The position numbers were made by a program, and so were the translations under genes. The notes beneath the pieces are model-generated. The model did not search any database. It worked only from the letters and a program-made list of their open reading frames with translations, and had not been told where the DNA came from. DNA of 64,000 nt from a virus, in IMG/VR virus record IMGVR_UViG_3300021185_002646, positions 1 through 64,000 of that record; one strand, 5' to 3'. Below are positions 29,181 to 56,340 of this stretch, in pieces. Position 1 is the stretch's first letter, and each line of letters begins with the position of its first letter.

Positions 29181-29768
29181 ATGTTAATACCAACAGTAAT
29201 TGAGACAACAGGCAGAGGCGAACGTGCATACGACATTTATAGTCGTTTGTTAAAAGATCGTATTGTAATGCTTAACGGAGAAGTTAACGACCATACAGCA
29301 AATTTAGTAGTTGCACAAATGCTATTTTTGGAATCACAAAATAGTGCAGAAGATATTAATTTTTACATTAATAGTCCAGGCGGTGCAGTAACTTCGGGAC
29401 TAGGTATATATGATACAATGCAATTTATTAAATCTCCAGTAAGCACAATTGTAATGGGTCAAGCATGTAGTATGGGTAGTTTCCTTGCTATGGCAGGTGA
29501 GCCGGGCAAACGTTTGGTGTTGCCAAATTCACGTACAATGATTCACCAACCTAGTGGTGGTGCAGGCGGACAAGCAACTGATATGCAAATTCAAGTTGAA
29601 GAGATTCTTAAAATGAAAAAGAACCTAACAGAAATTTATGTCAAACATAATAGTGTAGGTAAAACATATGAAGAATTGGCATCAGCTATGGAACGTGATA
29701 ATTTTATGTCAGCACAAGAAGCCGTAGATTTTGGTCTTGCTGATAAAGTTGTTGTTAGAAAAACATAA
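29181..29768 (+). CDS. clpP: ATP-dependent Clp protease proteolytic subunit
   Basis: [33 protein letters not shown]. Confidence 0.97.
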
Positions 29769-29803
29769 TATATTTGTAATACTATATTTGTATAAATAAT
29801 AGT

Positions 29804-30493
29804 ATGAAGATACATGATATATTAGAAGAACAACAAGTACTAGAAGGTCCAAACGATCCTCATATATTTAAAGCAGTATTCTTGGCAGGCGGACCAGGTG
29901 CTGGTAAAAGCTATGTGGCAGGAAGGTTATTGTCTGGACAAGGATTGAGGCCTTTAAATAGTGATGACGTATACGAGTATCTTGCTAAAAAACATAATAT
30001 GGATTTAGGGGACCCTGATGTTGTTGGAAGCGACAAGGGACAAGAAATCCGTAACCGTGCTAAAGAAATTACTAAGACACGAGAAGATTTATATCTAGAT
30101 GGTCGTTTAGGATTAATTATTGATGGCACTGGTAAAGACATTACTAAAGTATCACAAGCTAAAAATCAGTTAAATGAATTAGGTTATGATACAATGATGT
30201 TATTTGTTAACACAAGTGAAGAGGTAGCTCAAGAGCGTAATCTTCAAAGACCACGAACTATACCAGCAGAAATGGTAACAAAGATGTGGCAACGTGTACA
30301 ACAAAATATAATGAAATTCCAACAAGTCTTTGGAGCCGCAAGGTTTCATGTAGTAGACAACAGTGGTGGACTGGAAGATCCAGATCGTAAAGAAAACTTT
30401 GATGCTGTTTACAGAGAAGTAAGAAAGTTTTTAGGTGAACCACCTTCCAAAAGAGCCGCTAAAGCCTGGTTAGACAAGAATACTAAAACATAG
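29804..30493 (+). CDS. P-loop kinase (zeta toxin/PNK-like)
   Basis: AGGPGAGKS, LNSDD, IIDGTG, ERN..R.R; MKIHDILE leader; late box at 29791. Confidence 0.75.
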   Translation: MKIHDILEEQQVLEGPNDPHIFKAVFLAGGPGAGKSYVAGRLLSGQGLRPLNSDDVYEYLAKKHNMDLGDPDVVGSDKGQEIRNRAKEITKTREDLYLDGRLGLIIDGTGKDITKVSQAKNQLNELGYDTMMLFVNTSEEVAQERNLQRPRTIPAEMVTKMWQRVQQNIMKFQQVFGAARFHVVDNSGGLEDPDRKENFDAVYREVRKFLGEPPSKRAAKAWLDKNTKT

Positions 30494-30567
30494 TATATAA
30501 GTGTCGCCAAAATCAGCATAAATATTAAGCAGTTCAAATATAACTGTTTTATATAAAAAGGAATTTT

Positions 30568-30922: not shown

Positions 30923-32419
30923 ATGAAGTTATTTGGTATTTGGACAATATTTGTAGCCTTATCTATCAGTGCAGTGGCGGCCTACTACAGCATTGTTGGA
31001 CTTGTGGCTATTTTTGCCAGTGCCGTAATACCGATTATTATCATGGGGTCTGTGCTAGAAGTAGGCAAGCTAACATCAGCTGTTTGGTTGCACATGAACT
31101 GGAAATCAGCTCCATTTTTAATTAGAACGTATCTCACTATAGCCGTCATAATGCTTATGTTTATTACAAGCATGGGTATCTTTGGATTTTTATCTAAAGC
31201 ACATATTGAACAAACTAGTGCGGCTAGTGAGAACGTTGCCCAAATTGAACGAATTGAAGAAAACATTGTACGAAATAAACTAATTATTACAAAATCAGAA
31301 GATAAAATTATTAAACTAGAAGAAGTTGATATTTCTTTAGATGATGGAATACAAGAAAAAATACGCATTGAAGAAGAAAGAATTGCAAATGCATACACAG
31401 GTGTGCAACCATCAATTGATGAACAAAATGCAATTATAGAAGCAGAACAAAATGCCAAAGCAAATGCTATAGCACCATTTGAAACACAAATTGCAAACAT
31501 TGATAGAAAAATAGCATTAATGGACGAATACTCAATGAATAATGAAGTTGAGAAAATGCAAGGATTATTAGGTGTTAGACAAGATGGTATACTTGGATGG
31601 AATACTAGAGAAGCATTAAAAAAGTTTAAAGAAGATAATACCAAGGCTAGACAAATGGCACTTTTCCAACTAAATAAAGTAAGAGAAGAATTTGATAGTT
31701 CAGTTATCACTAGTGCTAGAGCTGAGATTAAACGAATTCGAATGTTAGCAGAGCAACAGATTGCCGACTCTAACTCATTAGTAACTAGACTTAGATCACA
31801 ACTTGGTCAAGGTCAACAAGAAGATAATACTGCATTAATTGATGCACAACGTATCTTAATTGAAACATCAGAAAATAAACTAAATGAATTATACACTACA
31901 AAATATGAACTTGAAGGCGAAAGCAGAAAACTAGAAGCAGAAGTTGGACCAGTTAAATATATTGCAGAGTTAGTTTATGGACAAGATCCAAGCAGAAATA
32001 TCTTGGAAGAAACAGTAAGATATGTTATACTAATACTTGTGTTTGTATTTGATCCATTAGCGGTTGTACTTGTTCTTGCAGGTATATCTGGATTAGGATT
32101 ACGCAAACCAATAAAGGAAATATATGAACCCAAAAAAGAACCCAAAAAAGATGAAGTTAGTGCAAATACCAAAGATGTCGCCAGCACTAAGAAAAATGAT
32201 TTGGGTAATAAAAAGAACAGCAAAACTACCAAAAAACCTGTTGTTCAAAATGAAGTATATGAAGATTACGAAGTAAAAAACGATGAAGTAATCCATGTTG
32301 ATTCAAAAGGTAAAGAATATACAATTGATGTACATGGAAATAGAAAATATCTCATTGAACAACTACAATACGACCTCAACGATAAATCAAAAAAATTACA
32401 ACAAAAAAAGAAAAATTAA
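30923..32419 (+). CDS. membrane coiled-coil protein with embedded peptidoglycan-binding motif
   Basis: Three N-terminal TM helices, long coiled coil, QGLLGVRQDGILGWNT motif, C-terminal TM. Confidence 0.7.
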   Translation: MKLFGIWTIFVALSISAVAAYYSIVGLVAIFASAVIPIIIMGSVLEVGKLTSAVWLHMNWKSAPFLIRTYLTIAVIMLMFITSMGIFGFLSKAHIEQTSAASENVAQIERIEENIVRNKLIITKSEDKIIKLEEVDISLDDGIQEKIRIEEERIANAYTGVQPSIDEQNAIIEAEQNAKANAIAPFETQIANIDRKIALMDEYSMNNEVEKMQGLLGVRQDGILGWNTREALKKFKEDNTKARQMALFQLNKVREEFDSSVITSARAEIKRIRMLAEQQIADSNSLVTRLRSQLGQGQQEDNTALIDAQRILIETSENKLNELYTTKYELEGESRKLEAEVGPVKYIAELVYGQDPSRNILEETVRYVILILVFVFDPLAVVLVLAGISGLGLRKPIKEIYEPKKEPKKDEVSANTKDVASTKKNDLGNKKNSKTTKKPVVQNEVYEDYEVKNDEVIHVDSKGKEYTIDVHGNRKYLIEQLQYDLNDKSKKLQQKKKN

Positions 32420-32869
32420 ATGAAAATTGATAATAGTAGTTATACAGTAACGCCCCCAGACCTTTATATGACAGAACATGGAATAAGTATTTTTATTTCA
32501 AGTACTAATAATGATTTAATTAATCCAGTAAAAGAATTATTTGAAAAGTTTATTGCAACAAGTGTTGTTTTTCTTGTTCAAAACAATAAAACAAATTCAG
32601 AGACATTACCATGGATGTGGAATGTATCTAAAACATGCGACTTTATGGTCATCGATGTTGATACGTGTGCATGGGAAGATATCATGGCAGGACTTTTAAA
32701 GTCAAGAGAAGAAGAAAATACAGTGCTATTTTACAGCGATAAATACAAGCGAAGAGAAACTGTAAAATTAATAAATGCTACAGGCACTAATCTAGTTGTT
32801 AGATCAATAGCTGATATTAACAATTATGTGAAGTTACAAATGAGTCCAGAATATTTTAATGACATCTAG
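32420..32869 (+). CDS. hypothetical protein
   Basis: 149-aa ORF in operon. Confidence 0.6.
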   Translation: MKIDNSSYTVTPPDLYMTEHGISIFISSTNNDLINPVKELFEKFIATSVVFLVQNNKTNSETLPWMWNVSKTCDFMVIDVDTCAWEDIMAGLLKSREEENTVLFYSDKYKRRETVKLINATGTNLVVRSIADINNYVKLQMSPEYFNDI

Positions 32870-34067
32870 TATCACGATATGTAATTTTTGTTCCAAAGAC
32901 ACAACACAAGTAAAGAAACTACTAGCAGGTGAAGGTGGTGTTCATATTTGTATTGATTGTGTTGAGCTTTGTCACGGCATTGTTACCAAAGAAACAGAAC
33001 GTTCTATAAAAAAGAATAATATATTTAATGTACCTACTCCTAGAAAAATACACGATAATTTAAATGAACATGTAATTAGTCAAGAGCGTGCAAAAAAGAC
33101 TTTAAGTGTAGCAATATATAATCATTATAAAAGAGTTACATCTAAAACAAAAACAAAATTACAAAAGAGCAATGTGTTATTAGCAGGTCCTACAGGAACA
33201 GGTAAAACATTATTAGCTCAAACACTTTCAAACTTTTTAGGTGTGCCTATGGTTATTACTGATGCAACAGTTATTACAGAAAGTGGATATGCTGGAGACG
33301 ATGCAGAAGTATTAATACATAAACTATTTCAAGCGGCAGACTATAATAAAGAAAAAGCAGAGCAAGGTATTATATATGTTGATGAAATTGATAAGAAAGC
33401 AAAACGTAATGACTATGTAAGTCTTAGCAGAGACGTATCTGGAGAAGGTGTGCAACAGAGCCTTTTAAAGCTCATGGAAGGTACTACAGTACCGGTTCCG
33501 AACAAACCGCAACATAACCCGGAGAAGGTGGATATTGACACCAGTAACATACTATTTGTAGTAGGTGGAGCCTTTGTTGGCCTACAAGATGTTGTGGTCA
33601 ATCGCCTTGGTAAAGCAAAGATAGGATTTAACGACGATTTAGACGCCGATGTAGAACAGTGGGAAACACACTTACAAACACGTGATTTAGTGAAATATGG
33701 ACTTATACCCGAATTTGTGGGTAGATTACCGTCTGTAAACGTCTTAAAGCCGTTAAATAAGAACGATCTACTTAGAATACTAACAGAACCAAAAGACAGT
33801 ATAATAGATCAAATAAAAGAGCTTTTTCTACTTGACAAAATACAAATAGAGTTTACAATAACAGCATTGGAAGAAATTACAGATATTGCCATAAAAGAAG
33901 AATTGGGTGCTAGAGGGTTACGTAAGATTTTAGACGAAAAACTACTTGAAACGCAATATCATTTACCAGAATTGTATAAAAAAGGAATAAGAAAAATTAT
34001 AATAAATGAACAAGTTATTTCTAGAAACGCAAAACCGCAACTCATCAAAGGTGAAGATGCAGAATAG
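32859..34067 (+). CDS. clpX: ATP-dependent Clp protease ATPase ClpX
   Basis: C4 zinc finger, GPTGTGKT, DEIDK, RDVSGEGVQQ, IGF loop, GARGLR. Confidence 0.95.
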   Translation: MTSSITICNFCSKDTTQVKKLLAGEGGVHICIDCVELCHGIVTKETERSIKKNNIFNVPTPRKIHDNLNEHVISQERAKKTLSVAIYNHYKRVTSKTKTKLQKSNVLLAGPTGTGKTLLAQTLSNFLGVPMVITDATVITESGYAGDDAEVLIHKLFQAADYNKEKAEQGIIYVDEIDKKAKRNDYVSLSRDVSGEGVQQSLLKLMEGTTVPVPNKPQHNPEKVDIDTSNILFVVGGAFVGLQDVVVNRLGKAKIGFNDDLDADVEQWETHLQTRDLVKYGLIPEFVGRLPSVNVLKPLNKNDLLRILTEPKDSIIDQIKELFLLDKIQIEFTITALEEITDIAIKEELGARGLRKILDEKLLETQYHLPELYKKGIRKIIINEQVISRNAKPQLIKGEDAE

Positions 34068-34605
34068 AAATAAAGGATATAAAAAGCGTAATACAGGACC
34101 GTTTGTAATCTCAAACGAACGTATAAGAGCAAAAGAAGTTAGAGTAAACTTTCCAGACGGTGAGAGCCAAGTGCTGTCTTTAAAGGATGCTTTGAATGAA
34201 GCAAAGTCGTTATATTTAGATTTAGTGTTGATCGCCGAAAAGGCAGATCCACCGGTATGTAAAATTATCGATCTAAATAAACATTTGTATTCATTAAAGC
34301 AAAAAGAAAAACTGGCTAAGAAGAAGCAACGCGAAAGTGTTGTAGAGAACAAAGAAATACGTATGGGACTAAATATTGATTCGCATGATTTAGAAACTAA
34401 GGCCAAAGCGGCTCGTAAATTTTTGGATAAAAATAACAAAGTAACAGTTACAGTTGTTTTGAGAGGTAGAGAACGTGGAAGACGAGACAGTGCAAAGGAA
34501 TTGCTAAATACTTTTGCTTACTTATTAGAAGTAGAGTACGAACAAATCTCAACACAGAACAATCGTGTATCTGGAAAAATAGAAGGAAAAAATGGGAAAC
34601 TATAA
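34057..34605 (+). CDS. infC: translation initiation factor IF-3
   Basis: NERIRAKEVR, LDLV...PPVCKI, KEIR...HDLETK, RGRE; likely start MQNRNK. Confidence 0.92.
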   Translation: MQNRNKGYKKRNTGPFVISNERIRAKEVRVNFPDGESQVLSLKDALNEAKSLYLDLVLIAEKADPPVCKIIDLNKHLYSLKQKEKLAKKKQRESVVENKEIRMGLNIDSHDLETKAKAARKFLDKNNKVTVTVVLRGRERGRRDSAKELLNTFAYLLEVEYEQISTQNNRVSGKIEGKNGKL

Positions 34606-34864
34606 CAATAATAGAAATAATAGACGTGACGATAAACAAGGTTTTGGTAATGGACTTTCTGTAGAAGTTAGAAATGGCAATGTAGAACAAGCCATTAGAA
34701 AACTTAAAAAGTTAGTTATGAAAACTGGACTTCTGAACGAAATACGTGAACGTAGATATTTTATCAGTAATACTGAAAAAAGACTTAAAGCACAGGCGGC
34801 AGGCCGAGCTAGAAGACGTAGAGAAATAGCTAAAGATTCTGTAGAGAAGAAAAGACTATATTAA
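34592..34864 (+). CDS. rpsU: ribosomal protein bS21
   Basis: VEVRNGNVEQAIRKLKK...GLL.E.RER.Y. Confidence 0.88.
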   Translation: MGNYNNNRNNRRDDKQGFGNGLSVEVRNGNVEQAIRKLKKLVMKTGLLNEIRERRYFISNTEKRLKAQAAGRARRRREIAKDSVEKKRLY

Positions 34865-34991: not shown

Positions 34992-35414
34992 ATGACTAGA
35001 TTAACAACACTAAATCTTCCGGATTTTTATAAAACTACAATAGGATTTGATAGTATGTTTGATGAGATGTTGAATAACTTCGCAACAAACACAGGCGGTT
35101 ACCCACCTTACAACATTGTAAAGGAAAGTGACAGTAGCTATACAATTAGCCTAGCAGTAGCTGGTTTCGATAAAGACGAAATTAAAATCCAACAAGACGG
35201 TAATGCACTTTCAATCAACGCTGAAAAGAAAACAAGCGAAGAAGAGATTGAATATTTACACAAAGGCATTGGAACTAGAAACTTTACAAAAGAATTTAGT
35301 TTAGCTGATTATGTAGAAGTGACATCATCGAAGTTAGATAACGGAATCTTAGTAGTTACATTGGAACAAAATATTCCAGACGAAAAGAAACCACGTACTA
35401 TTAACATCGACTAA
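34992..35414 (+). CDS. small heat shock protein (Hsp20/IbpA family)
   Basis: IGFD, YPPYNI, LAVAGF, YLHKGI..R.F, L.NGIL, IPDEKKPR.I. Confidence 0.95.
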   Translation: MTRLTTLNLPDFYKTTIGFDSMFDEMLNNFATNTGGYPPYNIVKESDSSYTISLAVAGFDKDEIKIQQDGNALSINAEKKTSEEEIEYLHKGIGTRNFTKEFSLADYVEVTSSKLDNGILVVTLEQNIPDEKKPRTINID

Positions 35415-35427: not shown

Positions 35428-35730
35428 ATGACTCAAGCATCAACAGGTAGCGTAGCAGATATTGTTAAATTAAAAACACCATCACGATACAATGTAGTAT
35501 TGTTAAATGATGATTCTACTCCGCAGGAGTTTGTAGTAAATATCTTACAGACGATTTTTAATAGATCGACAGAACAGGCAAACTCTGTGATGCTTGAGGT
35601 ACACGAAAAAGGCCGAGGCATAGCAGGCACATACAGTTACGAAGTAGCTGAACAAAAATGTGTAGAAACAATAACTAACGCAAGACAAAGTTCTTATCCG
35701 TTAGATGTTACAATAGAAAAAGCAGAATAA
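35428..35730 (+). CDS. clpS: Clp protease adaptor ClpS
   Basis: YNVVLLNDD.TP.EFV, MLEVHEKG, YEVAEQK, YPL. Confidence 0.93.
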   Translation: MTQASTGSVADIVKLKTPSRYNVVLLNDDSTPQEFVVNILQTIFNRSTEQANSVMLEVHEKGRGIAGTYSYEVAEQKCVETITNARQSSYPLDVTIEKAE

Positions 35731-36308: not shown

Positions 36309-36712
36309 TGCAAGAAGAAATAAAAGACGCAATACAAGAAGAAGTTAAAGAACAGTACAAAGACAGTCAAATGACCAAAGCTGGAAAGCTGGCTATGGAA
36401 CTTGGTGCTGAGCGTAAGCGTCTTAAAAAAGAATTATCAGAATTACAAACAGAAGTAGAAGACCTTACTCCTACAACACCAGTTGGTACAACAGACTGGT
36501 ATATTAAATGGGCGGCAATGGGACTTGCAGTTGCAGGCGTATTTTTAATGAGTGCAGGACTAACAACATATGGACAAATTGCATATATTATTAGTAGTGT
36601 TGGTTGGGTAGCAGTTGGAATGGCTTGGGGAGATAGAGCTATTATGATAGGAAGTGCTATAACTGGAACCGCAGTTGCAATGAATTTTGTAGAAAGGTTA
36701 CTGTCATTATGA
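36305..36712 (+). CDS. membrane protein (DUF6552-like C-terminus)
   Basis: Coiled coil, then DWYIKW and three TM helices. Confidence 0.6.
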   Translation: MMQEEIKDAIQEEVKEQYKDSQMTKAGKLAMELGAERKRLKKELSELQTEVEDLTPTTPVGTTDWYIKWAAMGLAVAGVFLMSAGLTTYGQIAYIISSVGWVAVGMAWGDRAIMIGSAITGTAVAMNFVERLLSL

Positions 36713-37104
36713 AAATAAATGAATGGGCAGACAACTTAAACATGTTTGATGATGGCACAGAAAGACTTGCTTATCTAGTTGAACTAGCAAAAAAGTCTAC
36801 AACACTACCTAAAGAACTACGTACTGATGATAGACTTGTAGGTGGGTGTATGTCAAAGATTTGGATTGATGTAGGAGTTGTAGAAGATAAAGTAAAAGTA
36901 TACTATGACAGTGATGCAATGATTACTAAAGGTATTACTAGTATTGTTGCAGATTGTTTTACAGATATTCCCCTTGCAGAAGCAAAGAAAATTACACATG
37001 ATGATTTTCAAAGTTTAAACATTGCACAATTACTTACACAACAACGTAGAAACGGATTAGGAAACTTAATTGAAACTATTAGACAAAAGGTATATGTATT
37101 ATGA
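36709..37104 (+). CDS. sufE: SufE family sulfur-acceptor protein
   Basis: V.GC.S.IW, DSDA.I.KG, LT..R.NG. Confidence 0.9.
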   Translation: MKINEWADNLNMFDDGTERLAYLVELAKKSTTLPKELRTDDRLVGGCMSKIWIDVGVVEDKVKVYYDSDAMITKGITSIVADCFTDIPLAEAKKITHDDFQSLNIAQLLTQQRRNGLGNLIETIRQKVYVL

Positions 37105-37656: not shown

Positions 37657-38755
37657 TCAAGACATTAAACTAGACTACAGTGACGTTTTAATTCGTCCAA
37701 AGCGTAGTACATTAAGTTCACGCAAACAAGTAAGACTTGAACGCAAGTTTAAATTTAGAAACAGCAGACATGAGTACGAAGGTATTCCTATTATGGCTGC
37801 TAACATGGATGGTGTTGGAACATTTGAAATGGCAGATGAACTTGCACAACAAAATATATTTACATGTTTAGTAAAAACATATTCAGTGGAAGAACTTGTA
37901 GATTTTTTTAACAATGATTATCCAGATAATAGAAGAACACAAAACATTGCTATGAGCATTGGTACCGGAACAATAGACTTTGATAAGTTAGAAGCCGTGT
38001 ATAATAAAGTAAGCAATAAACTAAAATATGTATGTATGGATATTGCAAATGGTTACAGTGATCACTTTGCACAACATGTTAAAAAAGTTCGTAATGCATT
38101 TCCTAATTTAGTAATTATAGCAGGTAATGTAGTAACTGGAGAGATGACAGAGGAGTTAATTTTAAATGGAGCAGACATCGTTAAAGTCGGAATTGGACCA
38201 GGAAGCGTGTGTACAACACGAATCCAAACAGGAGTCGGGTATCCGCAACTTAGTGCAGTCATTGAATGTGCAGATGCGGCACATGGACTTGGTGGACATA
38301 TTATTGCTGATGGGGGCTGTAACTCTAGTGGTGATGTGGCTAAAGCATTTGCTGGCGGTGCCGATTATGTAATGCTAGGCGGTATGCTTGCAGGACACGA
38401 TCAAGGTGGCGGCGAAGTTATTAGTAAGATGTATGCAACTAATGAATGGCTCACAGCAGAAAAACCTTTACTTGAACAAAAACAGTTTGTGGCTTTTTAC
38501 GGAATGAGTAGTGATGCAGCAAATACAAAACACTTTGGAGGACTAAAAGACTATCGTGCAAGCGAAGGACGAGAAGTACTAGTTCCATACAGAGGTGCAG
38601 TACAGCACACCATACAAGCAATCTTAGGTGGGTTGCGTAGTACTTGTACATATGCAGGTGCAATGAAATTAAAACAATTGAGCAAGTGTACAACATTCGT
38701 TCGTGTTAATAATCAATTTAATCGTACATACGAAAGTACAACAACAAAAATTTAA
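37646..38755 (+). CDS. guaC: GMP reductase
   Basis: [48 protein letters not shown]. Confidence 0.93.
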
Positions 38756-38836
38756 GCTATGTTTGTAATGCAGATCGGAATTGCATAAATAAAACGGCTA
38801 AAAACATTTATCTTAGATAAATAAAAGTGTATTAAG

Positions 38837-39042
38837 AATAGCACAACGTTGTGTTATTATTTTCATATACAAAGTAGTATAGAGCGACCTCGGCTCAGAA
38901 AAAAAGAGCGGCAGTTAGTGCCACGCTAACTGACTCTGGGAAAGACCAGGGCATAACCCATGCCTTACAAGCGATACATTATGAGGTATCGTGGTAGCAG
39001 CCAGGAGAGACTGGCAAAACGGATGCTTTCCCAAAAACATCC
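38837..39042 (+). ncRNA. candidate structured RNA/leader upstream of small-protein operon
   Basis: GC-enriched intergenic DNA with six consecutive hairpins and an 8-nt complementarity between two of them. Confidence 0.55.
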
Positions 39043-39067
39043 ACATAAAATATAAACGGAGAATAAA

Positions 39068-39262
39068 ATGACTACGACATTTTTTAATGCATGGTCAAGG
39101 TTGTTCAACGGGCACCGTCGAAGTGTGGCCTATAGCAAAAACCTTATGACATATGCAAAAACTGAATATGGTAATGATTGGCTATATGCCTACACCTATA
39201 TGTTAGAACATGATGGCCAAGCACCAAAGTCTTGGCATACAAAGAAGGTAACAATAAAATGA
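39068..39262 (+). CDS. small hypothetical protein
   Basis: GGAG RBS; YAKTEYGNDW.YAY. Confidence 0.65.
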   Translation: MTTTFFNAWSRLFNGHRRSVAYSKNLMTYAKTEYGNDWLYAYTYMLEHDGQAPKSWHTKKVTIK

Positions 39263-39450
39263 CAACAACATTAATATATAAACAAACATGCGAAGTTTGT
39301 GAAAAGATTAAAAACGCAACTCTAACAGTGCTATTGGCACTTTGGGCATTTGGTGAATCATGTGGACGTGCAAGAGCGGCTGCACAGTTACATCGTGATG
39401 GGTTTCATGAAGAAGCAAAAAGTTTATACATGGATAATAAAAATGATTAA
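39259..39450 (+). CDS. small hypothetical protein
   Basis: ATGA overlap; G.ARAAAQL.R.G..EEAK.L. Confidence 0.65.
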   Translation: MTTTLIYKQTCEVCEKIKNATLTVLLALWAFGESCGRARAAAQLHRDGFHEEAKSLYMDNKND

Positions 39451-39628
39451 TACTATAACAAACAAATTAGGCTGGTTAAAACGTGCATATAGTCGCACTC
39501 AAAGTAGAAAACAAACTGAAAAGGCATTATCAGATTTAACTGATTTTGAATTGAATGATATTGGATTATGCAGAGGCGATATTAGATCAGTAGCACGTGG
39601 CGAAAAAGTTTATAGAAAGACATACTAA
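39443..39628 (+). CDS. DUF1127 family small protein
   Basis: R.T...LSDLTD.EL.DIGL.RGDI; likely start MINTIT. Confidence 0.85.
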   Translation: MINTITNKLGWLKRAYSRTQSRKQTEKALSDLTDFELNDIGLCRGDIRSVARGEKVYRKTY

Positions 39629-39697
39629 ATGTGGCCTTATACTGAAGAAGAATTAGACTTTATTAATAAGTAGAGTTTTAATCGTATAAATAGCTGT

Positions 39698-44420: not shown

Positions 44421-44450
44421 AAATAATTTTACAATTCTGTAAAAAAGGTA

Positions 44451-45031: not shown

Positions 45032-45032
45032 A

Positions 45033-45338
45033 ATGCGATTCAAAGACATAAAAATGTTAGACCAAGGTAAGCCTCACGTAAATGGTAAGCAGGCAATTAT
45101 TGACTTTGGCAAATATAAACTAAGCATAATCTGTAATGACATGTCATATGGTGGCAAATCAGGCATGTACGAAGTAGGTGTGTTTAAAGACTGGGGAACA
45201 GAAGAAGAAAAACTATGTGAACTCCCAGGTATCACAACAGAAGGCGACACAGTCGCTGGATATCTAACTGCATCAAATCTAGATGCAATACTCCAAAAAA
45301 TGTATTTAATTACAGCAGAGGAACCAATACAAATTTAA
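45033..45338 (+). CDS. hypothetical protein
   Basis: SYGG..G.YEV.V...V.GYLT motif. Confidence 0.65.
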   Translation: MRFKDIKMLDQGKPHVNGKQAIIDFGKYKLSIICNDMSYGGKSGMYEVGVFKDWGTEEEKLCELPGITTEGDTVAGYLTASNLDAILQKMYLITAEEPIQI

Positions 45339-45347
45339 ACAGTTTTG

Positions 45348-45424
45348 GTCTCCTTAGCTCAGCTGGATAGAGCAACGGCCTTCTAAGCCGTAGGTCGAGG
45401 GTTCGAATCCTTCAGGGGACGCCA
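45348..45424 (+). tRNA. tRNA-Arg(TCT)
   Basis: Loop CT-TCT-AA, encoded CCA. Confidence 0.95.
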
Positions 45425-45426
45425 AT

Positions 45427-45511
45427 GCTCGCATGATGGAATTGGTAGACATAACAGACTTAAAATCTGTGGCCATATGGCGTCCCGGTTCGAGTCCGGG
45501 TGCGAGTACCA
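45427..45511 (+). tRNA. tRNA-Leu(TAA)
   Basis: Long variable arm, loop CT-TAA-AA, encoded CCA. Confidence 0.95.
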
Positions 45512-45516
45512 AATAT

Positions 45517-45591
45517 ATAGGTGTAGTGTTAATGGTAGCACGTTGGATTCCAAATCCAAAAGTCAGGGTTCAAATCCTTGCACCTATGCCA
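45517..45591 (+). tRNA. tRNA-Trp(CCA)
   Basis: Loop TT-CCA-AA, encoded CCA. Confidence 0.93.
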
Positions 45592-45596
45592 AATAT

Positions 45597-45673
45597 ACTC
45601 TTGTAGCATAGCGGTCTAATGCCACCCGCTCATAACGGGTCGATCACAGGTTCGAATCCTGTCGGGAGTACCA
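45597..45673 (+). tRNA. tRNA with CAT anticodon (elongator Met or Ile2)
   Basis: Loop CT-CAT-AA; paired 1:72 and no GGG/CCC anticodon stem, so not the initiator. Confidence 0.88.
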
Positions 45674-45688
45674 AGAAAGAAAAAGGAA

Positions 45689-45763
45689 TGGAAAGTAGCA
45701 TAACGGTAATGCAGTTGTTTTTGGTACAAAAGATTATAGGTTCGAATCCTATCTTTCCAGCCA
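45689..45763 (+). tRNA. tRNA-Gln(TTG)
   Basis: U1-A72, G73, loop TT-TTG-GT, encoded CCA; 27:43 mismatch. Confidence 0.88.
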
Positions 45764-46917: not shown

Positions 46918-47745
46918 ATGCAATTTGATTTTAAAGTAGAGCAAGTCGCAGAACTATTGCCACGTGTTAATGGCCTTTTATGGCATGATGCAATGCAGAG
47001 AGTTTTGCCCAAATGGAATATCAATACTGTTGAAAGAGTTGCAGGGTTTATAGCCCAAACGGCTCACGAATCAGGTGGATATACCGTTCTAACTGAGAAT
47101 CTAAATTACAGTGCCGAAGCACTGGATAAGATTTTTCCAAAGTATTTTAAACGAGCAGGACGAAATGCAAAAGATTATCATAGGCAACCTGAGAAGATTG
47201 CAAATGTAATTTATGCAGGTCGTATGGATAATGGTGATACAGATAGTGGAGATGGCTGGCGCTTTCGAGGTGGCGGCATTCTTCAGTTAACTGGTCGCTA
47301 TAATTATACACAATTTGGTAAAGCAGAAGATATGAGTGCAGAAGAGGCCACAGAGTTTGTTCGCAGTCCTATTGGAGCGTTAGCAAGTGCATGCTGGTTT
47401 TGGAATACAAATAACATTAATAAGTACTGTGATGCCCAAGATATTGTTGGGATGACAAAACGTATTAATGGGGGAACTATTGGACTAGAAGATCGCAAAA
47501 AACATTACGCACATGCGTTAGAAGTGTTAGGTGGACATTATACTCCACGTGAAACTTATGAAACTGTGCGTGTTGGATCTCGAGGTTCAACAGTTGCAAA
47601 ATTACAAGAAGCACTAGGAATTGGTGCAGACGGTATTTTTGGTAAAGGTACAGAAGCATCACTTAAAGAGTGGCAAAGCTCAAAAGGCCTAGTTGCTGAC
47701 GGTGTTGCTGGTCCTAACACATTAGGAATCTTATTTAAAGAGTAA
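46918..47745 (+). CDS. GH19 family endolysin with peptidoglycan-binding domain
   Basis: FIAQTAHES, ENLNYS, FRGGG.LQLTG..NY, RINGG; C-terminal DGIFG/DGVAG. Confidence 0.92.
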   Translation: MQFDFKVEQVAELLPRVNGLLWHDAMQRVLPKWNINTVERVAGFIAQTAHESGGYTVLTENLNYSAEALDKIFPKYFKRAGRNAKDYHRQPEKIANVIYAGRMDNGDTDSGDGWRFRGGGILQLTGRYNYTQFGKAEDMSAEEATEFVRSPIGALASACWFWNTNNINKYCDAQDIVGMTKRINGGTIGLEDRKKHYAHALEVLGGHYTPRETYETVRVGSRGSTVAKLQEALGIGADGIFGKGTEASLKEWQSSKGLVADGVAGPNTLGILFKE

Positions 47746-48980
47746 TGGAAAAGAACACTACGCCTATTAATAAACATAGTGATACATGGTGTCCAATTCC
47801 ATTTAATGCTATTAGCTTTCATCCTACAGGAAGATTAACTCGTTGCATGATGAGTGAAACTGCAATGGGTGAAAGCTATGATAGTGAAGAATTACAAGCC
47901 TTACGTCAAGATATGCTTGACGGCAAGTGGGATAAAGAAGGTTGTGAAACTTGTTACAAGAAAGAACAACATGGAAATATTAGCCAAAGACAGAAATGGC
48001 TATTAAAAGATCCAAATAAATTTAAAAACCAAGACGGATATAACAATCCACAAGTAACAGGTAATCCTGTAAATCACATGTTCATTAATTACAGTAATAT
48101 CTGTAATTTTAAATGCAGAATGTGTAGTCCTTTATACAGTAACGGTCTTATACCAGAATTTAAGCGTCTAGCATCATTAAATATAGTTCCTAACAAATAT
48201 GATCAAAATCCTGGTGTTAAGAATATAAATTCTACCAACAGTTATTTAAAAAACAATCCAAGTAAATTAGATAGTGTAACAAGTATCTGGATTACAGGCG
48301 GAGAGCCGTTTATGGATAATAGTGTTTATGACCTCATGGATATATTAGATGAAAATGATAGATCACGAGAAGTAGACATGTGTGTTACTACAAATGGTTC
48401 AAAGGTTGATCTTAATAAATTACAAAGATGTGAAACATTAGATAATTTTATACTTGATTTAAGTCTTGATGCTCCTAATCATATGTTTGAATATATGCGT
48501 AGTGCAGGTGCATTTACTTGGACTGAAATGGAAAGATTATTAGACGAGTTAAAATATTTTAGAGAGTTAAATAGTAGTTGGTTTAAATTGCATTTAAATT
48601 CTAGCATACAAGCATATAACTTTGATACTATATTAGATTTTGATAAATTATGTAACGAACACAACACTAGTAACAATTCAAGACAACTAGTAAACCCAAG
48701 AGAATTTAGAACTGATGTATTACCAATGGAAATGCGACAGGCAGAAGTAGAAAAATTAGAAAAATACAATGTGAATAATGATGTAAATTCTGCAAGATTA
48801 AAAAGAACATTAGAAGATGCACGTTTAAATTTATTAAAGCCACAGGCAGATATAGAACAGATTAAAAAGTTTGTAAGAAGAACAGTAGAAACAGACAAGT
48901 ATAGAAATATGCATTTGTATGATTATCATAAAGAATTAGGTGACTGGGTTTATAGCACTTATAACAAATACTTTTCTTGA
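47745..48980 (+). CDS. radical SAM protein with Twitch/SPASM-like N-terminus
   Basis: CNFKCRMC, TGGEPF, TTNG; N-terminal CP.P..C...C..C. Confidence 0.88.
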   Translation: MEKNTTPINKHSDTWCPIPFNAISFHPTGRLTRCMMSETAMGESYDSEELQALRQDMLDGKWDKEGCETCYKKEQHGNISQRQKWLLKDPNKFKNQDGYNNPQVTGNPVNHMFINYSNICNFKCRMCSPLYSNGLIPEFKRLASLNIVPNKYDQNPGVKNINSTNSYLKNNPSKLDSVTSIWITGGEPFMDNSVYDLMDILDENDRSREVDMCVTTNGSKVDLNKLQRCETLDNFILDLSLDAPNHMFEYMRSAGAFTWTEMERLLDELKYFRELNSSWFKLHLNSSIQAYNFDTILDFDKLCNEHNTSNNSRQLVNPREFRTDVLPMEMRQAEVEKLEKYNVNNDVNSARLKRTLEDARLNLLKPQADIEQIKKFVRRTVETDKYRNMHLYDYHKELGDWVYSTYNKYFS

Positions 48981-50423: not shown

Positions 50424-51158
50424 TTATTCTTCGTCTCCGTAAATAGTTAGAACTTCAGTAACAGCGACATGTCGTTCAACATCACCTTTGGTAAAGCTGA
50501 CAACTCCAATTATATCACTACCTCTTTGTTCTAGTAGTTTTACGAAATTTTTAAGACCGTTGTCTTCGAATCCACGGTCGTGTTGTGCTAAGTCTCCTGT
50601 TACAATAATTTTAGAATTCTCGCCAATGCGTGTTAATAACATCTTCATTTGAGATGGTGTCGCATTTTGCATTTCGTCTGCTATAATCCAAGAATTCTTA
50701 AAAGTTCTACCACGCATGTATGCCAGTGGTGCAATCTCAATAATGTTCTCATTAATCATATGTTCGATTGTGCTTGGTGACCAATATTCTTCCATTACGT
50801 CAAATATAGGTCTTGTCCATGGTGCCATTTTTTCTACTAGTGTTCCTGGTAGAAATCCATGTTGTTCATCAACACTGACAGCAGGTCGTGTAATTACAAT
50901 TTTACTACATAAGTTTGAATTGTATGCGTCGATAGCCGCTAACACGCCTAGCAATGTTTTACCTGTACCAGCAGGTCCCATTGCAAACACAATGTTACGT
51001 TTTTCATCGTCAAGAAGCTCTACATAATCTTCTTGTGCGAGATTACGTGGAACAATTTGTACATGTCTTTTTCTGTGTGCGTTGAGTTGGACTATCTTAT
51101 CCTGTGAATGTTCTTGTTGATATTGTTGTTTTTTTGTTTTTCGAGCTCGTTTAGCCAT
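50424..51158 (-). CDS. phoH: PhoH family ATPase
   Basis: GPAGTGKT, GFLPG, YMRGRT, DEMQN, TGD..QHD. Confidence 0.95.
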   Translation of the reverse strand: MAKRARKTKKQQYQQEHSQDKIVQLNAHRKRHVQIVPRNLAQEDYVELLDDEKRNIVFAMGPAGTGKTLLGVLAAIDAYNSNLCSKIVITRPAVSVDEQHGFLPGTLVEKMAPWTRPIFDVMEEYWSPSTIEHMINENIIEIAPLAYMRGRTFKNSWIIADEMQNATPSQMKMLLTRIGENSKIIVTGDLAQHDRGFEDNGLKNFVKLLEQRGSDIIGVVSFTKGDVERHVAVTEVLTIYGDEE

Positions 51159-51839: not shown

Positions 51840-52303
51840 GCATACAACAAAACGACTTAATTGACTTAATACAATCAACATTTAGTGTTGATCAATACAA
51901 AAGCAAAGTAGGTGATGATAAAAATGTTGTTGTAGTTGCATTTGATATTAAAGACGGTGATCCTGCTAAAGATTTAAGTCAATTTATTGAATCAGGACAT
52001 GACACTATTGATGTAGATGTGTCACCAGGTCCAGACAAAGAAGGAAACTATAAAGTATTTGTTGAGTTAGAAAGAAATAGTAAATTGTTTGAAACAATTG
52101 ATGCTATACTAAAAGATATAACTCGTGTAGATGAATCAGCAAATAGTTTTATGTTTAATGCATATAAAAGTGACATGCCAGCAAAATGGAGTAAAGAAAA
52201 CTTTGAAGAAAGTGTTTACACAAGCAGTTACGATTACACAATTGCTACTGATCCAGAAGCACATGCTATAACAGAACGCATTAAATTCTTAAACAAGTAT
52301 TAA
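51836..52303 (+). CDS. hypothetical protein
   Basis: ATGA overlap; 155 aa. Confidence 0.65.
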
Positions 52304-52521
52304 TGGCGAAACAAGAAGCAGTTAAATTACAAGGAACAGTTTTAGATTCGCTACCAGGTGCTTTTTTCAAAATAGAACTAGAAAACGGGCACATTGTCAC
52401 TGGTATTATCAGTGGGAAGATAAGAAAAAACAGAATCAGGGTTTTACCCGGAGATAAAGTTGACGTAGAAATGTCACCATACGATTTAGAAAAAGGTCGT
52501 ATAACATTTAGGTACAAATAA
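52303..52521 (+). CDS. infA: translation initiation factor IF-1
   Basis: LENGH...[29 protein letters not shown]. Confidence 0.96.
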
Positions 52522-52522: not shown

Positions 52523-52999
52523 ATGTTTATATTAGGAAAACTTAAGACATATTTAATCCTTGCAGCCGTATTGGGTGCAGTAGGATTTGGTGCGTGGAAA
52601 TATTATACATACACACAAGAACAAATTCGTGTATATGCCACAAACGCCGCAACTGCCGAACAGGCAGTAGAGTCAACACAAGCCGCACTTGACTCAGTAC
52701 AAAAAGATTTAGAACAAGTGCAGAAACAATTTAATGAGGTGACAGAAGAGTTCGGTAATGCTCAAAAACGTGTCGATACACTAGAAGAAAAATTGAGCGA
52801 ACACGACTTAGGTCAACTTGCACAAGCCAGACCTGGATTAGTTGAAAAAATAATCAACAGTGCCAGCAACGAAGTAGGCAGGTGTATGGAGATACTAAGT
52901 GGATCACCATTAACGGAGAAGGAAATAAATGCAACAAAGCCATCAAAAATCAACAGTGAGTGTCCTGATATTGCTAACCCTAACTATGTTCCTAGGTAG
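52523..52999 (+). CDS. inner-membrane spanin (Rz-like)
   Basis: N-terminal TM plus periplasmic coiled coil; overlaps a lipoprotein gene. Confidence 0.75.
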   Translation: MFILGKLKTYLILAAVLGAVGFGAWKYYTYTQEQIRVYATNAATAEQAVESTQAALDSVQKDLEQVQKQFNEVTEEFGNAQKRVDTLEEKLSEHDLGQLAQARPGLVEKIINSASNEVGRCMEILSGSPLTEKEINATKPSKINSECPDIANPNYVPR

Positions 53000-53378: not shown

Positions 53379-53423
53379 AAACACTAGCGTTTAAGGCTCT
53401 TCGTTATGTCAATAAATACTACG

Positions 53424-54095
53424 ATGAAGAAGTTTAAAAACCCTTGGTTTATTCTTGGCCTAGAACCAGGTGCTACTTTAAAAGAGGTCAAACTAGCATA
53501 TAAAAGATTAGCTCTTAAAAATCATCCTGATAAGGGCGGTACTATTGCTGACTGGCTTTCTATAAGTGATGCATATGAATCTATAACAGAAAAGAAACAT
53601 ATACCTATAGTAAAGTCAACAGATACACAAATGATAGATTTGCCACTTACTATTGAACAACAGATTAATGGAGTTAACGATTATGTTGAAATTGACGATT
53701 TATACTTAAAAGTAAATATTCCACCCGGTGTTTTAGCAGGTGATAAGTTTAAAATAACTGATAAGCGAAAAAAATATATAATAAATGTGAAAGAAAAGGC
53801 AAATAAAGTCTTTACAAGATCAGGAAATAATATTATAATGTATAAGACTTTAGACGTTATTGATGTAATGAAACTGAATTCGTTTATGATTATTACACCA
53901 ACAGGAGAACGAGCTGAAATACAAATACCACCAGATACAGTAACAGGTAGTATTATTGTATTAAAGGGACACGGTCTTTTGAATAGAAAGAGTAAAAGAA
54001 AGGGAAATTTAAGGATACATATTAAGGTATCCATACCATACTTAAATAGTACTAACATGGAAGAATTTATAACGAGGTTAAGGACAAATGACTGA
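53424..54095 (+). CDS. DnaJ/CbpA-like co-chaperone
   Basis: J domain with HPD; C-terminal DnaJ_C-like region; no zinc finger. Confidence 0.85.
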   Translation: MKKFKNPWFILGLEPGATLKEVKLAYKRLALKNHPDKGGTIADWLSISDAYESITEKKHIPIVKSTDTQMIDLPLTIEQQINGVNDYVEIDDLYLKVNIPPGVLAGDKFKITDKRKKYIINVKEKANKVFTRSGNNIIMYKTLDVIDVMKLNSFMIITPTGERAEIQIPPDTVTGSIIVLKGHGLLNRKSKRKGNLRIHIKVSIPYLNSTNMEEFITRLRTND

Positions 54096-56340
54096 TATAG
54101 AAAAAATTGTAATCACTGCTATTAATTTAGCAAAAAAATTAAAACACGAATATGTAACAATAGAACATATTGCGGCAGTTCTCTTAGATGATCCACATAT
54201 TCAAGCAATGTGTTACGAAGTAAATGCAGACTTTGAACAATTACAAATTGCACTAGTAGAATACTTAGAAAAAGAATGTGCAGAATTAGTTAAAAATGGA
54301 ACTGAAGAACCTAATCCATATAAAACACAAATGTTAGAACGTGTGTTTAACAGAGCATTAACACAAGCATTATTTCAAGGTAAAAAACATCTTAACCAAT
54401 TAGATCTAGTATTAAGTATACTAGGTGAAGAAAACAGTATAGCAGCTCAATACTCTGAACAATTAGGACTTAATAAAAACAAAGTTATTAAATGGATGCA
54501 AGACGCAAATCAGCAAGAGCATGAACAAATATTTGGACCTGCTGATGGATTGAATGATCCACGCCGAGCAACTGGAATGACACCAAGAGATGTATTGGCA
54601 CAGTTTTGTACTAACATGAACGAGGCATATGATGAATATGATGACTTAATTGGACGTAGAAGTGAATTAAAAGATTTAGTACAAACAGTAGCACGTAAGA
54701 AAAAGTCTAATGCTATTTTAACAGGTGGCAGTGGTGTTGGTAAAACAGCAGTTGTACAAGGACTAGCAAAACTTATTGTAGAAGGACATGTTCCTGATAT
54801 TATTAAAGACAAAGTTGTATGGGAATTAGATATGACTAAGTTAGTAGCTGGTACAAAGTATAGAGGTGATTTTGAAGAACGCATGAAACAGTTAGGCGAA
54901 GCATTAATACAAGAACCTAACATTATTTTATTTGTAGATGAGATACATACAATCATTGGTGCAGGTAGTACAAATGGTACTATGGATGCAGGTAACATGT
55001 TAAAGCCAGCGTTAAGCAATGGTAAACTAAAAGTAATTGGTGCTACAACAGATGAAGAATATAGAAAAGTATTTGAAAAAGAAACAGCACTAGCACGTAG
55101 ATTTACAAAAGTTGTAGTAGATGAACCTAATACAAAAGACGCAAAAGAAGTTGTATACAATTCTTTAGTATCATATGAAGCATTTCACGATGTTACTATT
55201 AGACCAGAAGCAGCAGATCTTTCAGTTGAATTAAGTAATCAATATATCTTTAACAAAAAACTTCCAGATAAAGCATTTGATATTATTGACAGAGCATGTG
55301 CATTTAATAGAATATTACCACCAGAAGAACGATTAGACATATTAGGTGAAGATGAAATTAAAGCAGAGGTGGCAAGATTAACTGGTATTCCAAAAGAACA
55401 TTTAGGAAAAACAGATGATAAAGAAACTGCAAACAAGCACAGTGAAGTAAGAGAATTTTTAGAAAGTACTGTATTTGGTCAACAAGTGGCAATTGATTGC
55501 GTAGTTGATAGTATTACAGTTAGCATGGCAGGTCTTAAAGATCCTATTAAACCTATTGCAAGTTATTTGCTTACAGGACCAACTGGTGTTGGTAAAACAG
55601 AACTTGCTAAACGTTTAGCACAATCAATGAGTATGAAACTATGTAGATACGATATGGCAGAATATCAAGAACGTCATACAGTGTCAAAACTAATTGGTTC
55701 ACCTCCAGGTTATGTAGGACACGCAGATGGTAAAGCAGGAGATGGATTACTTATTAATCAATTAGAAGATAATCCAAATTGTGTACTGTTACTTGACGAA
55801 GTAGAAAAAGCACACCCAGATTTAATGAGTGTATTGTTAAGTTTATTAGACGAAGGTACAATTACAAGTAGCACAGGTAAAGTAGTAAGTGCCAAGAACG
55901 CTATTATTATTATGACAAGTAACCTTGGAGCCAGAGATGCTGCAATTAAGAGCATTGGCTTTAATGAAGAAACATATAATGCAAAAGCAGTAGATGACGC
56001 AGTAAACAATTATTTTGCACCAGAGTTCCGTAACAGACTAGACGGTGTTGTTAAGTTTAATTCTTTAACAAGAAACGACATGAAGCGTATTGTTATTAAG
56101 TTCTTAGGTGAACTTGAAACATATGTAGAAGGTAGACATATTGTAATTAATTGGGGTCCTGAACTAGTAGCAATGCTAGAAGATAAAGGATACGATCCGG
56201 CAATGGGTGCAAGACCGTTAGCAAGACTAATCAATGAAACTGTAAAACTTCCGTTAGCAAAATATTTACTTGATAATAACAAAGATTATACATTGGACAT
56301 TGATTGGAAAAAAGATAAGTTAACAATTAATGCAAAATAA
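54088..56340 (+). CDS. clpA: ATP-dependent Clp protease ATPase ClpA
   Basis: Clp N domain, two AAA modules (GSGVGKT, GPTGVGKT), IGF loop, no ClpB middle domain. Confidence 0.93.
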   Translation: MTDIEKIVITAINLAKKLKHEYVTIEHIAAVLLDDPHIQAMCYEVNADFEQLQIALVEYLEKECAELVKNGTEEPNPYKTQMLERVFNRALTQALFQGKKHLNQLDLVLSILGEENSIAAQYSEQLGLNKNKVIKWMQDANQQEHEQIFGPADGLNDPRRATGMTPRDVLAQFCTNMNEAYDEYDDLIGRRSELKDLVQTVARKKKSNAILTGGSGVGKTAVVQGLAKLIVEGHVPDIIKDKVVWELDMTKLVAGTKYRGDFEERMKQLGEALIQEPNIILFVDEIHTIIGAGSTNGTMDAGNMLKPALSNGKLKVIGATTDEEYRKVFEKETALARRFTKVVVDEPNTKDAKEVVYNSLVSYEAFHDVTIRPEAADLSVELSNQYIFNKKLPDKAFDIIDRACAFNRILPPEERLDILGEDEIKAEVARLTGIPKEHLGKTDDKETANKHSEVREFLESTVFGQQVAIDCVVDSITVSMAGLKDPIKPIASYLLTGPTGVGKTELAKRLAQSMSMKLCRYDMAEYQERHTVSKLIGSPPGYVGHADGKAGDGLLINQLEDNPNCVLLLDEVEKAHPDLMSVLLSLLDEGTITSSTGKVVSAKNAIIIMTSNLGARDAAIKSIGFNEETYNAKAVDDAVNNYFAPEFRNRLDGVVKFNSLTRNDMKRIVIKFLGELETYVEGRHIVINWGPELVAMLEDKGYDPAMGARPLARLINETVKLPLAKYLLDNNKDYTLDIDWKKDKLTINAK

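Follow-up and report, generated by a model that had tools for sequence, protein, structure and literature searches.

Components of the bacterial Clp proteolysis and translation machineries are recurrent in phages with very large genomes. Clp components recur in jumbo phages (Iyer et al. 2021), and IF1, IF3, S21, transfer RNAs (tRNAs), a CCA-adding enzyme and transfer-messenger RNA (tmRNA) recur in huge phages (Al-Shayeb et al. 2020, PMC7162821). Among cultured phages, the gene list published for Agrobacterium phage Atu_ph07 (MF403008) comprises ClpX, ClpP, ClpA, ClpB, ClpS and DnaJ (Attai et al. 2018, PMC6102473), and Sinorhizobium phage AP-J-162 carries six Clp open reading frames (ORFs), with clpX beside IF-3, as well as Hsp20, DnaJ and one tmRNA (PMC11242549). 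Here, we analyzed a window of 64,000 nt that forms the start of a linear IMG/VR virus record of 80,277 bp (IMGVR_UViG_3300021185_002646). ClpP, ClpX, ClpS, Hsp20, a DnaJ-like protein next to ClpA, and a tmRNA, all listed in an initial annotation made from the sequence alone, were recovered within positions 29181–56340. That annotation had considered the presence of the whole set together as the point of note, yet annotations or publications already report this set for Pseudomonas phage vB_PaeM_PA5oct (PA5oct; MK797984, Arenbergviridae, 287 kb), Atu_ph07, AP-J-162 and the Sinorhizobium phage Phosso (PV764938). The gene set is real and a conserved trait of this lineage, not a new one.

Does the set amount to a pathway of its own? 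The initial annotation had described a near-complete trans-translation and Clp proteolysis circuit. For trans-translation this is overstated, as the phage encodes the RNA component only, without SmpB. The locus consists of two old syntenic modules, (clpP)…unknown–clpX–infC–rpsU–hsp20–clpS and phoH…dnaJ–clpA, with a separately acquired host-type tmRNA and tRNAs between them. We lean towards reading it as an inherited maintenance toolkit that works via host partners, and not as a purpose-built circuit. The central features are the following.

29181–29768, plus strand: clpP (peptidase family S14), 195 aa, without propeptide (PF00574, E 3.4e-79, profile positions 2–181 of 182)
32859–34067, plus strand: clpX, 402 aa, with C4 zinc finger, Walker A and B motifs and IGF loop (Pfam, PDB alignment)
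34992–35414, plus strand: hsp20 (Pfam PF00011, E 6e-20, residues 43–139)
35428–35730, plus strand: clpS, 100 aa (Pfam PF02617, E 7e-29)
43289–43652, plus strand: two-piece (permuted) alpha-type tmRNA (ARAGORN; Rfam RF01849, 105 bits with a cut-off of 50; RF04321, 107 bits)
53406–54095, plus strand: J-domain protein, 229 aa (Pfam DnaJ, E 3e-8; DnaJ_C, E 4e-16)
54088–56340, plus strand: clpA, 750 aa (Pfam Clp_N, AAA, AAA_2)

Two conserved Clp modules

The catalytic triad of ClpP is intact, as had been claimed, with Ser (in GQACSMG), His (MIHQP) and Asp (ERDNF) aligning with solved ClpP (E 4e-76). ClpX matches the N-terminal C4 zinc-binding domain (PF06689, 5e-13) and the AAA+ module (PF07724, 1e-28); its GPTGTGKT and IIYVDEIDK motifs align with solved ClpX, and the IGF at residues 255–257 falls on the ClpP-docking loop of the latter. 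Similarly, ClpA contains an N domain and two AAA+ modules with canonical KYRG (D1) and GYVG (D2) pore loops, and aligns to residues 12–743 of E. coli ClpA (E 1e-163). Its IGF (residues 623–625) stands opposite the IGL docking loop of the E. coli protein, and the docking loops assigned to both ATPases by the initial annotation are thus borne out. In eight related contigs, ClpA is 83–94% identical. A further ORF of ClpX-like size (47745–48980, 411 aa) proved to encode a radical SAM protein and was rejected.

ClpA of one complete relative (G018, 328 kb) measures 1111 aa (ORF 151–3486 of G018:C1:213000-216600) and carries an insertion of ~350 aa opening the second AAA+ module, including a LAGLIDADG homing-endonuclease domain (residues 712–767). 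We regard the insertion as a probable intein; its place, in or beside the nucleotide-binding (P-loop) region of D2, is assigned from the AAA_2 match, which picks up again no earlier than position 16 of the profile.

ClpS retains the N-degron pocket, its LNDDSTPQEF and EVHEKG segments aligning with PDB entries 3dnj (the best solved match) and 2w9r, the Caulobacter and E. coli proteins, respectively. The gatekeeper methionine of the pocket, Met53 in Caulobacter and Met40 in E. coli, is replaced by Gln in the window and in all 26 relatives with at least 65% ClpS identity; more distant phage ClpS proteins carry Met, Phe or Val at this position. Hsp20 has the alpha-crystallin domain and a C-terminal TINID that includes I-N-I (the IxI motif), and the hsp20–clpS adjacency is conserved in distant relatives. 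The J-protein shows HPD at residues 40–42 and one DnaJ C-terminal domain; neither CxxCxGxG repeats (zinc finger) nor a G/F region was seen in its sequence, and it is therefore not of class A. The last 8 bases of its gene overlap the clpA start. An E 0.005 match of ORF 52523–52999 to GrpE was one among many coiled-coil matches and was disregarded.

How old are these arrangements? Their conservation involves several neighbouring genes.

30923–32419, plus strand: 498-aa protein without Pfam or PHROG family, hydrophobic at the N terminus and in a C-proximal segment, charged in between
34006–34605, plus strand: infC (IF3), overlapping the clpX end (Pfam IF3_N, 2e-21; IF3_C, 1e-19)
34592–34864, plus strand: rpsU (bS21; Pfam Ribosomal_S21, 1.6e-12)
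44344–45763, plus strand: tRNA cluster Arg-GCG, Arg-TCT, Leu-TAA, Trp, Met, Gln (ARAGORN, Rfam)
50424–51158, minus strand: phoH, synteny marker upstream of dnaJ–clpA (Pfam PhoH, 4e-69; order as in PA5oct and a 335-kb relative)
52303–52521, plus strand: infA (IF1; Pfam eIF-1a, 9e-23)

A ClpX-based scan of IMG/VR returned 49 loci. Within the close clade (ClpX 63–90% identical), the order clpP, kinase-like, nuclease, unknown, unknown, clpX, infC, rpsU, hsp20, clpS, amidotransferase is kept gene for gene. At 42–47% ClpX identity, several relatives keep the unknown–clpX–hsp20–clpS core, mostly with clpP at a distance of 10 kb or less, and about a dozen have a homologue of the 498-aa protein 1.2–1.7 kb ahead of clpX (in the window, the two have a 149-aa ORF between them). 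The dnaJ–clpA pair is also present in the 335-kb relative. Among 36 related records, ClpS was found in 24 and an alpha-type tmRNA above the Rfam cut-off in 14. In a collection of 5.8 billion proteins, the nearest 120 ClpX clusters are all at least 70% identical and either unnamed or labelled ClpX; they derive from Tara, JGI, ENA and Logan, on contigs of up to 335 kb.

The ratio of nonsynonymous to synonymous substitution rates (dN/dS), computed against four related contigs, was 0.09–0.31 for clpP, clpX, infC, rpsU, clpS and the gene of the 498-aa protein, with clpP (0.09–0.17) and the last of these (~0.3) towards either end; hsp20 gave 0.09–0.18, and 0.41 in the most distant pair. The Clp-block genes are intact and evolve under purifying selection. 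Four marine metatranscriptome runs, belonging to several studies, yielded contigs that cover most of 36.3–56.3 kb including the tmRNA and ClpA, with identical matches to 43208–43566 (spanning the tmRNA) and 54449–54812 (inside clpA), and that weakly support expression. Taken together, intact genes, purifying selection, conservation in the clade and presence in RNA libraries lead us to conclude that the phage very probably makes its own ClpXP, ClpAP/ClpS and tmRNA. Summed metatranscriptome contig depth was highest at a non-coding/small-ORF island (38342–39675; 187 and 110 in run X17) and at the tRNA cluster (45012–45678; 679 in run X19), a pointer only, as contig depths cannot rank genes.

The carrier of these genes is a phage. 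CheckV estimates the 80,277-bp record to be 23% complete, and the genome should therefore span ~350 kb; complete relatives, bearing terminal repeats, measure 328 and 365 kb. The GC content of the window is 31–39% and the plus strand holds nearly all long ORFs. PHROG and Pfam searches identified class I ribonucleotide reductase, PhoH, two ATP-dependent ligase-like genes, tail-fibre-like proteins, an endolysin-like protein, a CCA-adding enzyme and radical SAM proteins. Sequence nearly identical to the window turned up in 14 or more metagenome runs labelled seawater or marine, drawn from separate studies. Based on the phage gene matches and this marine occurrence, the window is a piece of a ~350-kb marine jumbo phage, and it belongs to the lineage that includes PA5oct, Atu_ph07, Phosso and AP-J-162.

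Beyond the genes of the initial annotation, the span 29181–56340 encodes IF3, bS21, IF1, IscU, SufE and peroxiredoxin, and it holds six of the window's 10 tRNAs. SufE (36709–37104), peroxiredoxin (41826–42368) and the IscU-type scaffold (42885–43295, E 4e-53) place iron–sulfur and redox genes among those for proteostasis. At the window's end (63386–64000 onward), a 751-aa protein fuses a CCA-adding tRNA nucleotidyltransferase domain to a 5′-3′ deoxyribonucleotidase-like domain.

The tmRNA, its tag and the ClpX channel

The Rfam models matched by the tmRNA are alpha_tmRNA (RF01849) and tmRNA_permuted (RF04321). Its acceptor piece has an encoded CCA end at 43381, and GGGGCUG at 43432 opens the coding piece. 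Across eight aligned relatives, 68 pairs are predicted, and compensatory changes occur in 14, including the T-arm and two acceptor-stem pairs. The third acceptor pair, G3.U70, is invariant in all eight, and a G.U at this place is the alanine identity element. The tag frame (43520–43561) encodes ANANYEPEMALAA followed by a stop; the LAA end reported earlier is thus correct, and both the length of 13 residues and the end are conserved in relatives (ANDNYSPEMALAA, ANNNYAPAMALAA, ANNNYEPEMAMAA). A promoter candidate precedes the gene.

43282–43309, plus strand: predicted sigma-70-like promoter (TTGACA, 16 nt, TG, TATCAT; 11/12 in a consensus scan)

Its −10 region (GTGT-TATCAT-AAATAA) is identical in three of five aligned sequences and diverged in the other two, in an alignment that begins after TTGACA and hence covers, of the two hexamers, only the −10. 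Overall, the sigma-70 and terminator scans did not exceed shuffled expectation, and the site before the tmRNA is the only one retained. The end of the IscU gene lies within this promoter region.

The phage tag resembles ANDNEMALAA with YxP inserted before EMALAA, and its end is therefore an ordinary cellular end. ANDNEMALAA is widespread among Alphaproteobacteria; the cellular relatives of one metagenome-assembled genome (MAG), which are small-genome alphaproteobacteria, have the tags ANDNEMALAA, ANDNKMALAA and ANDNMALAA. Judging by the tmRNA type only, the host is probably a marine alphaproteobacterium. A finer host call from the tag was rejected because ANDNEMALAA is spread across many alphaproteobacterial groups. 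Under the alpha model, cellular tmRNAs score 180–274 bits and those of the phages mostly 99–123 (145 in the 335-kb relative), and in a blastn comparison with 132 loci, mostly cellular tmRNA, the best identity was about 60–68%. These low values argue that the phage tmRNA is not a recent copy.

Scanning 185,579 species genomes for the tag pattern gave two matches, both apparently in mis-binned phage contigs. PBPT01000016.1 (335,231 bp), from a MAG labelled Candidatus Neomarinimicrobiota, has a phage-type tmRNA with phage-like neighbours and phoH…dnaJ–clpA; PALK01000009.1, from a MAG labelled Rickettsiales, has a phage-type tmRNA beside phage-like genes. Both look like mis-binned jumbo-phage contigs and, as a by-product of this work, at least two published bacterial MAGs would hold contigs of these phages.

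Is the tmRNA inherited together with the Clp genes? No tmRNA was found in Atu_ph07 or PA5oct, both of which have the Clp set. In two complete but distant relatives (G018 and G023) and in a third, likewise distant, of 32% completeness (G034), Rfam assigns the permuted tmRNA to the betaproteobacterial model, with passing scores of 126–145 bits in G023 and G034; G018 reaches 66 bits, under the cut-off of 84, but 96 bits with tmRNA_permuted. The tags of these three relatives are ENDEIFALAA, ANADTFALVA and ANNEMFALVA. Within a single phage lineage, two-piece tmRNAs thus come in two different cellular types, alpha and beta. Their positions vary as well: the tmRNA lies 60–87 kb from clpX in G018 and G023, and the alpha-type tmRNA of Phosso ~31 kb from clpX, on the other side than in the window. 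Absence from some relatives, two types and differing positions together indicate that the tmRNA was gained and placed independently of the Clp genes, and the simplest reading is that a lineage already owning Clp genes captured host-type tmRNAs repeatedly. In a further relative, G043, two additional phage-like tmRNAs accompany the genome's own.

The partners needed for a closed circuit are missing. In agreement with the initial annotation, SmpB is not encoded in the window, nor anywhere else in the 80-kb contig. A search for smpB, whose control was positive in 10 of 14 reference genomes, came up empty for the contig, for 36 related virus records, of which 7 are complete, and for four cultured relatives; for the window phage, this result covers 23% of the genome, with 77% unseen. 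SspB and DnaK were found neither in the contig nor in four related records (two complete). The check for smpB and sspB proposed along with the initial annotation turned up neither gene in the sequences searched, and its notion of a self-contained circuit falters, as SmpB, SspB and DnaK are all missing from the contig and from those complete relatives in which each was sought. This makes the tmRNA and the J-protein dependent on SmpB, EF-Tu, alanyl-tRNA synthetase (AlaRS) and DnaK of the host.

Can the phage ClpX read the phage tag? In E. coli ClpX, six residues contact ssrA and contribute to its degradation, namely Tyr153, Val154, Thr199, Val202, Arg228 and His230; H230A, T199A, T199V and V202A strongly increase the Michaelis constant (KM), T199S raises it only about 4-fold, and R228A shifts specificity (Fei et al. 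2020, PMC7652416). Human ClpX, without Thr199 and His230, fails to degrade ssrA-tagged proteins (same study). The window ClpX departs from these canonical channel loops at four of the six residues (V154A, giving a pore-1 GYAG, T199S, R228Q and H230N), with Val202 kept, and its RKH loop is three residues shorter and has QHN in place of RKH (NKPQHNP). When loops were compared across 50 phage ClpX sequences and 120 database clusters, the GYAG/QHN variant occurred in 23 of 23 close IMG/VR relatives and in each of the 120 nearest clusters. GYVG is retained in the more distant ClpX proteins of huge phages (Atu_ph07 and Phosso among them), which have GGRK(H/N)P, another loop, or a deletion. With four of six ssrA-contact residues substituted, the ClpX of this clade is a doubtful reader of the LAA tag. 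The earlier chain of reasoning—LAA is the ClpX degron, so phage ClpX reads the phage tag—is weakest at this very link. Retuned specificity, also proposed there, remains plausible in view of the ClpX loops and the ClpS gatekeeper; its direction, though, would be away from the LAA tag.

A probable maintenance toolkit and its rivals

What might the two modules and the tmRNA do during infection? In the toolkit that we favour, phage ClpP would form the peptidase barrel onto which phage ClpX and ClpA would dock through their IGF loops, and ClpS would pass N-degron proteins to ClpA. Hsp20 would hold unfolded proteins and the J-protein would recruit host DnaK. The tmRNA would be transcribed from its own sigma-70-type promoter, processed into two pieces, charged by host AlaRS and delivered by host SmpB and EF-Tu, so as to free ribosomes stalled on broken mRNAs by appending a tag ending in ALAA. 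The tagged fragments would most likely be destroyed by host ClpXP and by phage or host ClpAP, with phage ClpX, given its altered pore-1 and RKH loops, probably preferring other substrates. Hsp20, the J-protein, ClpXP and ClpAPS would add folding and turnover capacity, and IF1, IF3, bS21, the tRNAs and the tmRNA would keep ribosomes productive. The net effect could be to sustain ribosomes, amino-acid supply and folding through a long infection of a slow, nutrient-poor host.

Several points weigh against this account. Every functional step for the Clp proteins of this lineage is taken from homology, and the loop argument carries mutational data from E. coli over to a protein that is ~50% identical; the GYAG/QHN channel might still bind an Ala-Ala end. 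ClpP tetradecamers accept IGF/IGL loops in hydrophobic pockets, and the positions lining these pockets in E. coli appear only partly conserved here (Tyr60 to Asn, Phe112 to Leu). Lastly, RNA-library contigs give no strand, level or timing, and DNA carry-over is possible.

A more specific proposal, which we put forward tentatively and regard as possible but not probable, is a division of labour. ClpX would have been re-specified away from Ala-Ala ends and the ClpS gatekeeper altered, such that host ClpXP or phage ClpAP clears tagged fragments, while phage ClpX–ClpP and ClpS–ClpA remove a private set of host proteins, possibly regulators or defence factors. If true, the repeated independent capture of alpha- and beta-type tmRNAs would mark ribosome rescue as a recurrent bottleneck in giant-phage infection.

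The dedicated circuit of the initial annotation, in which the tag is matched to phage ClpX and ClpA and the pathway retuned against putative host-defence targets or the products of RNase-stalled ribosomes, appears unlikely to us. All its parts do lie inside 27 kb, tag length and end are conserved in the clade, the substrate-binding elements of ClpX and ClpS show clade-specific changes, and tmRNAs were repeatedly captured in the lineage. Yet the tmRNA occurs independently of the Clp set (it is absent from Atu_ph07 and PA5oct, which do have the Clp genes) and differs in position among relatives; neither co-inherited parts nor a tag matched to a protease or to an SspB adaptor were found, SmpB and SspB being absent from the contig and the relatives tested. 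Moreover, the changes in ClpX remove rather than reinforce known contacts to an Ala-Ala end, and the tag end is the common alphaproteobacterial MALAA, which host proteases should read, too. A tag matched to its protease is thus hard to reconcile with a tmRNA inherited independently of the Clp genes and a ClpX that has lost four of six ssrA-contact residues.

Alternatively, the Clp ATPases and the J-protein may act mainly in virion morphogenesis or be packaged, for example, unfolding or translocating head or tail proteins. We doubt this, too, despite a favourable genomic setting: dnaJ–clpA is located directly upstream of structural or tail-fibre genes in the window, PA5oct and Atu_ph07, and a motif of late type precedes clpP.

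29164–29171, plus strand: TATAAATA, the consensus of T4-type late promoters, ending 9 nt ahead of clpP
2581, 9649, 29164, 29791 and 39685, plus strand: all copies of TATAAATA (motif scan)

These five copies in 64 kb, all on the plus strand, compare with 13.4 expected by chance. They end 9 nt before clpP (29181), 5 nt before the gene for a zeta-like kinase (29804), and, in the remaining two cases, 18 nt ahead of the ORF that begins at 9675 (copy at 9649) and 5 nt ahead of the one that begins at 39698 (copy at 39685); the copy at 2581 overlaps the end of ORF 2130–2585. From this placement, we infer a fit to a T4-type late promoter. A structural role would also be in line with the proposal that ClpA and ClpX act in translocation or assist assembly (Iyer et al. 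2021) and with the presence of ClpP and ClpX in phage G virions (PMC12484599). On the other hand, the PA5oct annotation flags the neighbours, and not ClpA or DnaJ, as virion proteins detected by mass spectrometry, clpX sits amid translation and chaperone genes rather than structural ones, and a ClpS adaptor together with an intact ClpP triad and docking loops points to genuine regulated proteolysis. The PA5oct omics paper states nothing on Clp genes, and what the PhageExpressionAtlas says about clpP and clpX refers to the genes of the host and was set aside.

To roles beyond those considered here we would give only a slim chance. Least credible of all is a cellular or chimeric origin of the contig, wrongly labelled as viral and carrying ordinary bacterial housekeeping genes: cellular homologues exist for all genes and two relatives sit in published MAGs labelled Neomarinimicrobiota and Rickettsiales, but those MAG contigs carry phage-type tmRNA and phage-like genes, hydrolases among them (the 335-kb one with phoH…dnaJ–clpA and a size matching complete relatives), the genes lie nearly all on one strand with phage ribonucleotide reductase, ligase, PhoH and tail-fibre matches, their order is that of cultured phages, and the alpha-type tmRNA scores of the phages (mostly 99–123 bits) fall below the cellular range (180–274).

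Comparison with known systems

A widespread ocean lineage (at least 120 ClpX clusters at 90% identity) keeps a full Clp protease set, chaperones, initiation factors and a rescue RNA under purifying selection, which supports the view that giant phages maintain the host's capacity for protein synthesis and turnover during infection. No new mechanism is opened by these data, as the set is already annotated in cultured relatives, and these are the right systems for experiments. Focused interest attaches to the clade-fixed change in the ClpX channel, the change of the ClpS gatekeeper, and the repeated capture of tmRNA without SmpB.

Compared to these cultured phages, the window shares most with PA5oct in layout. 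There, clpX (169.7 kb), clpS (172.6 kb), clpP (180.4 kb) and dnaJ–clpA (192.9–195.8 kb) occupy ~26 kb, phoH is located upstream on the opposite strand, structural genes follow downstream of clpA, and ClpA is 40% identical to that of the window over 97% of its length. Unlike the window, PA5oct infects a gammaproteobacterial host and has no tmRNA, and its ClpX keeps GYVG and is without the RKH motif in another way. Atu_ph07, with an alphaproteobacterial host, shares ClpX, ClpP, ClpA, ClpS and a DnaJ next to ClpA, whereas its 490-kb genome scatters the clp genes far apart except for the dnaJ–clpA pair, includes ClpB, yielded no tmRNA, and encodes a ClpX with GYVG and GGRKNP. Phosso resembles the window in having ClpP, ClpX, ClpS, a DnaJ-like protein with ClpA, and an alpha-type permuted tmRNA (108 bits) without SmpB; in contrast, a peptide deformylase gene stands between its dnaJ and clpA, and its ClpX keeps both GYVG and GGRKNP. 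Phosso and AP-J-162 are soil phages of ~470 kb.

Farther afield, phage G likewise combines tmRNA, ClpP and ClpX (PMC12484599), but has a Gram-positive host and no reported ClpA or ClpS. The moraphage paper, which deals with another lineage and Bacteroidota hosts, lists ClpA and PhoH as core genes of other large phages. Some huge phages encode SmpB (Al-Shayeb et al. 2020, PMC7162821), in contrast to all relatives tested here. Relative to the ClpXP and ClpAPS systems of E. coli and Caulobacter, the window differs in lacking SmpB and SspB, in its GYAG and QHN ClpX, its Gln gatekeeper in ClpS and the YxP in its tag, as well as in the spacing of clpP and clpX, which have four other genes between them here and are adjacent in bacterial systems. 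The protein families, the catalytic, ATPase and docking motifs, and the two-piece architecture of alphaproteobacterial tmRNA are, however, the same.

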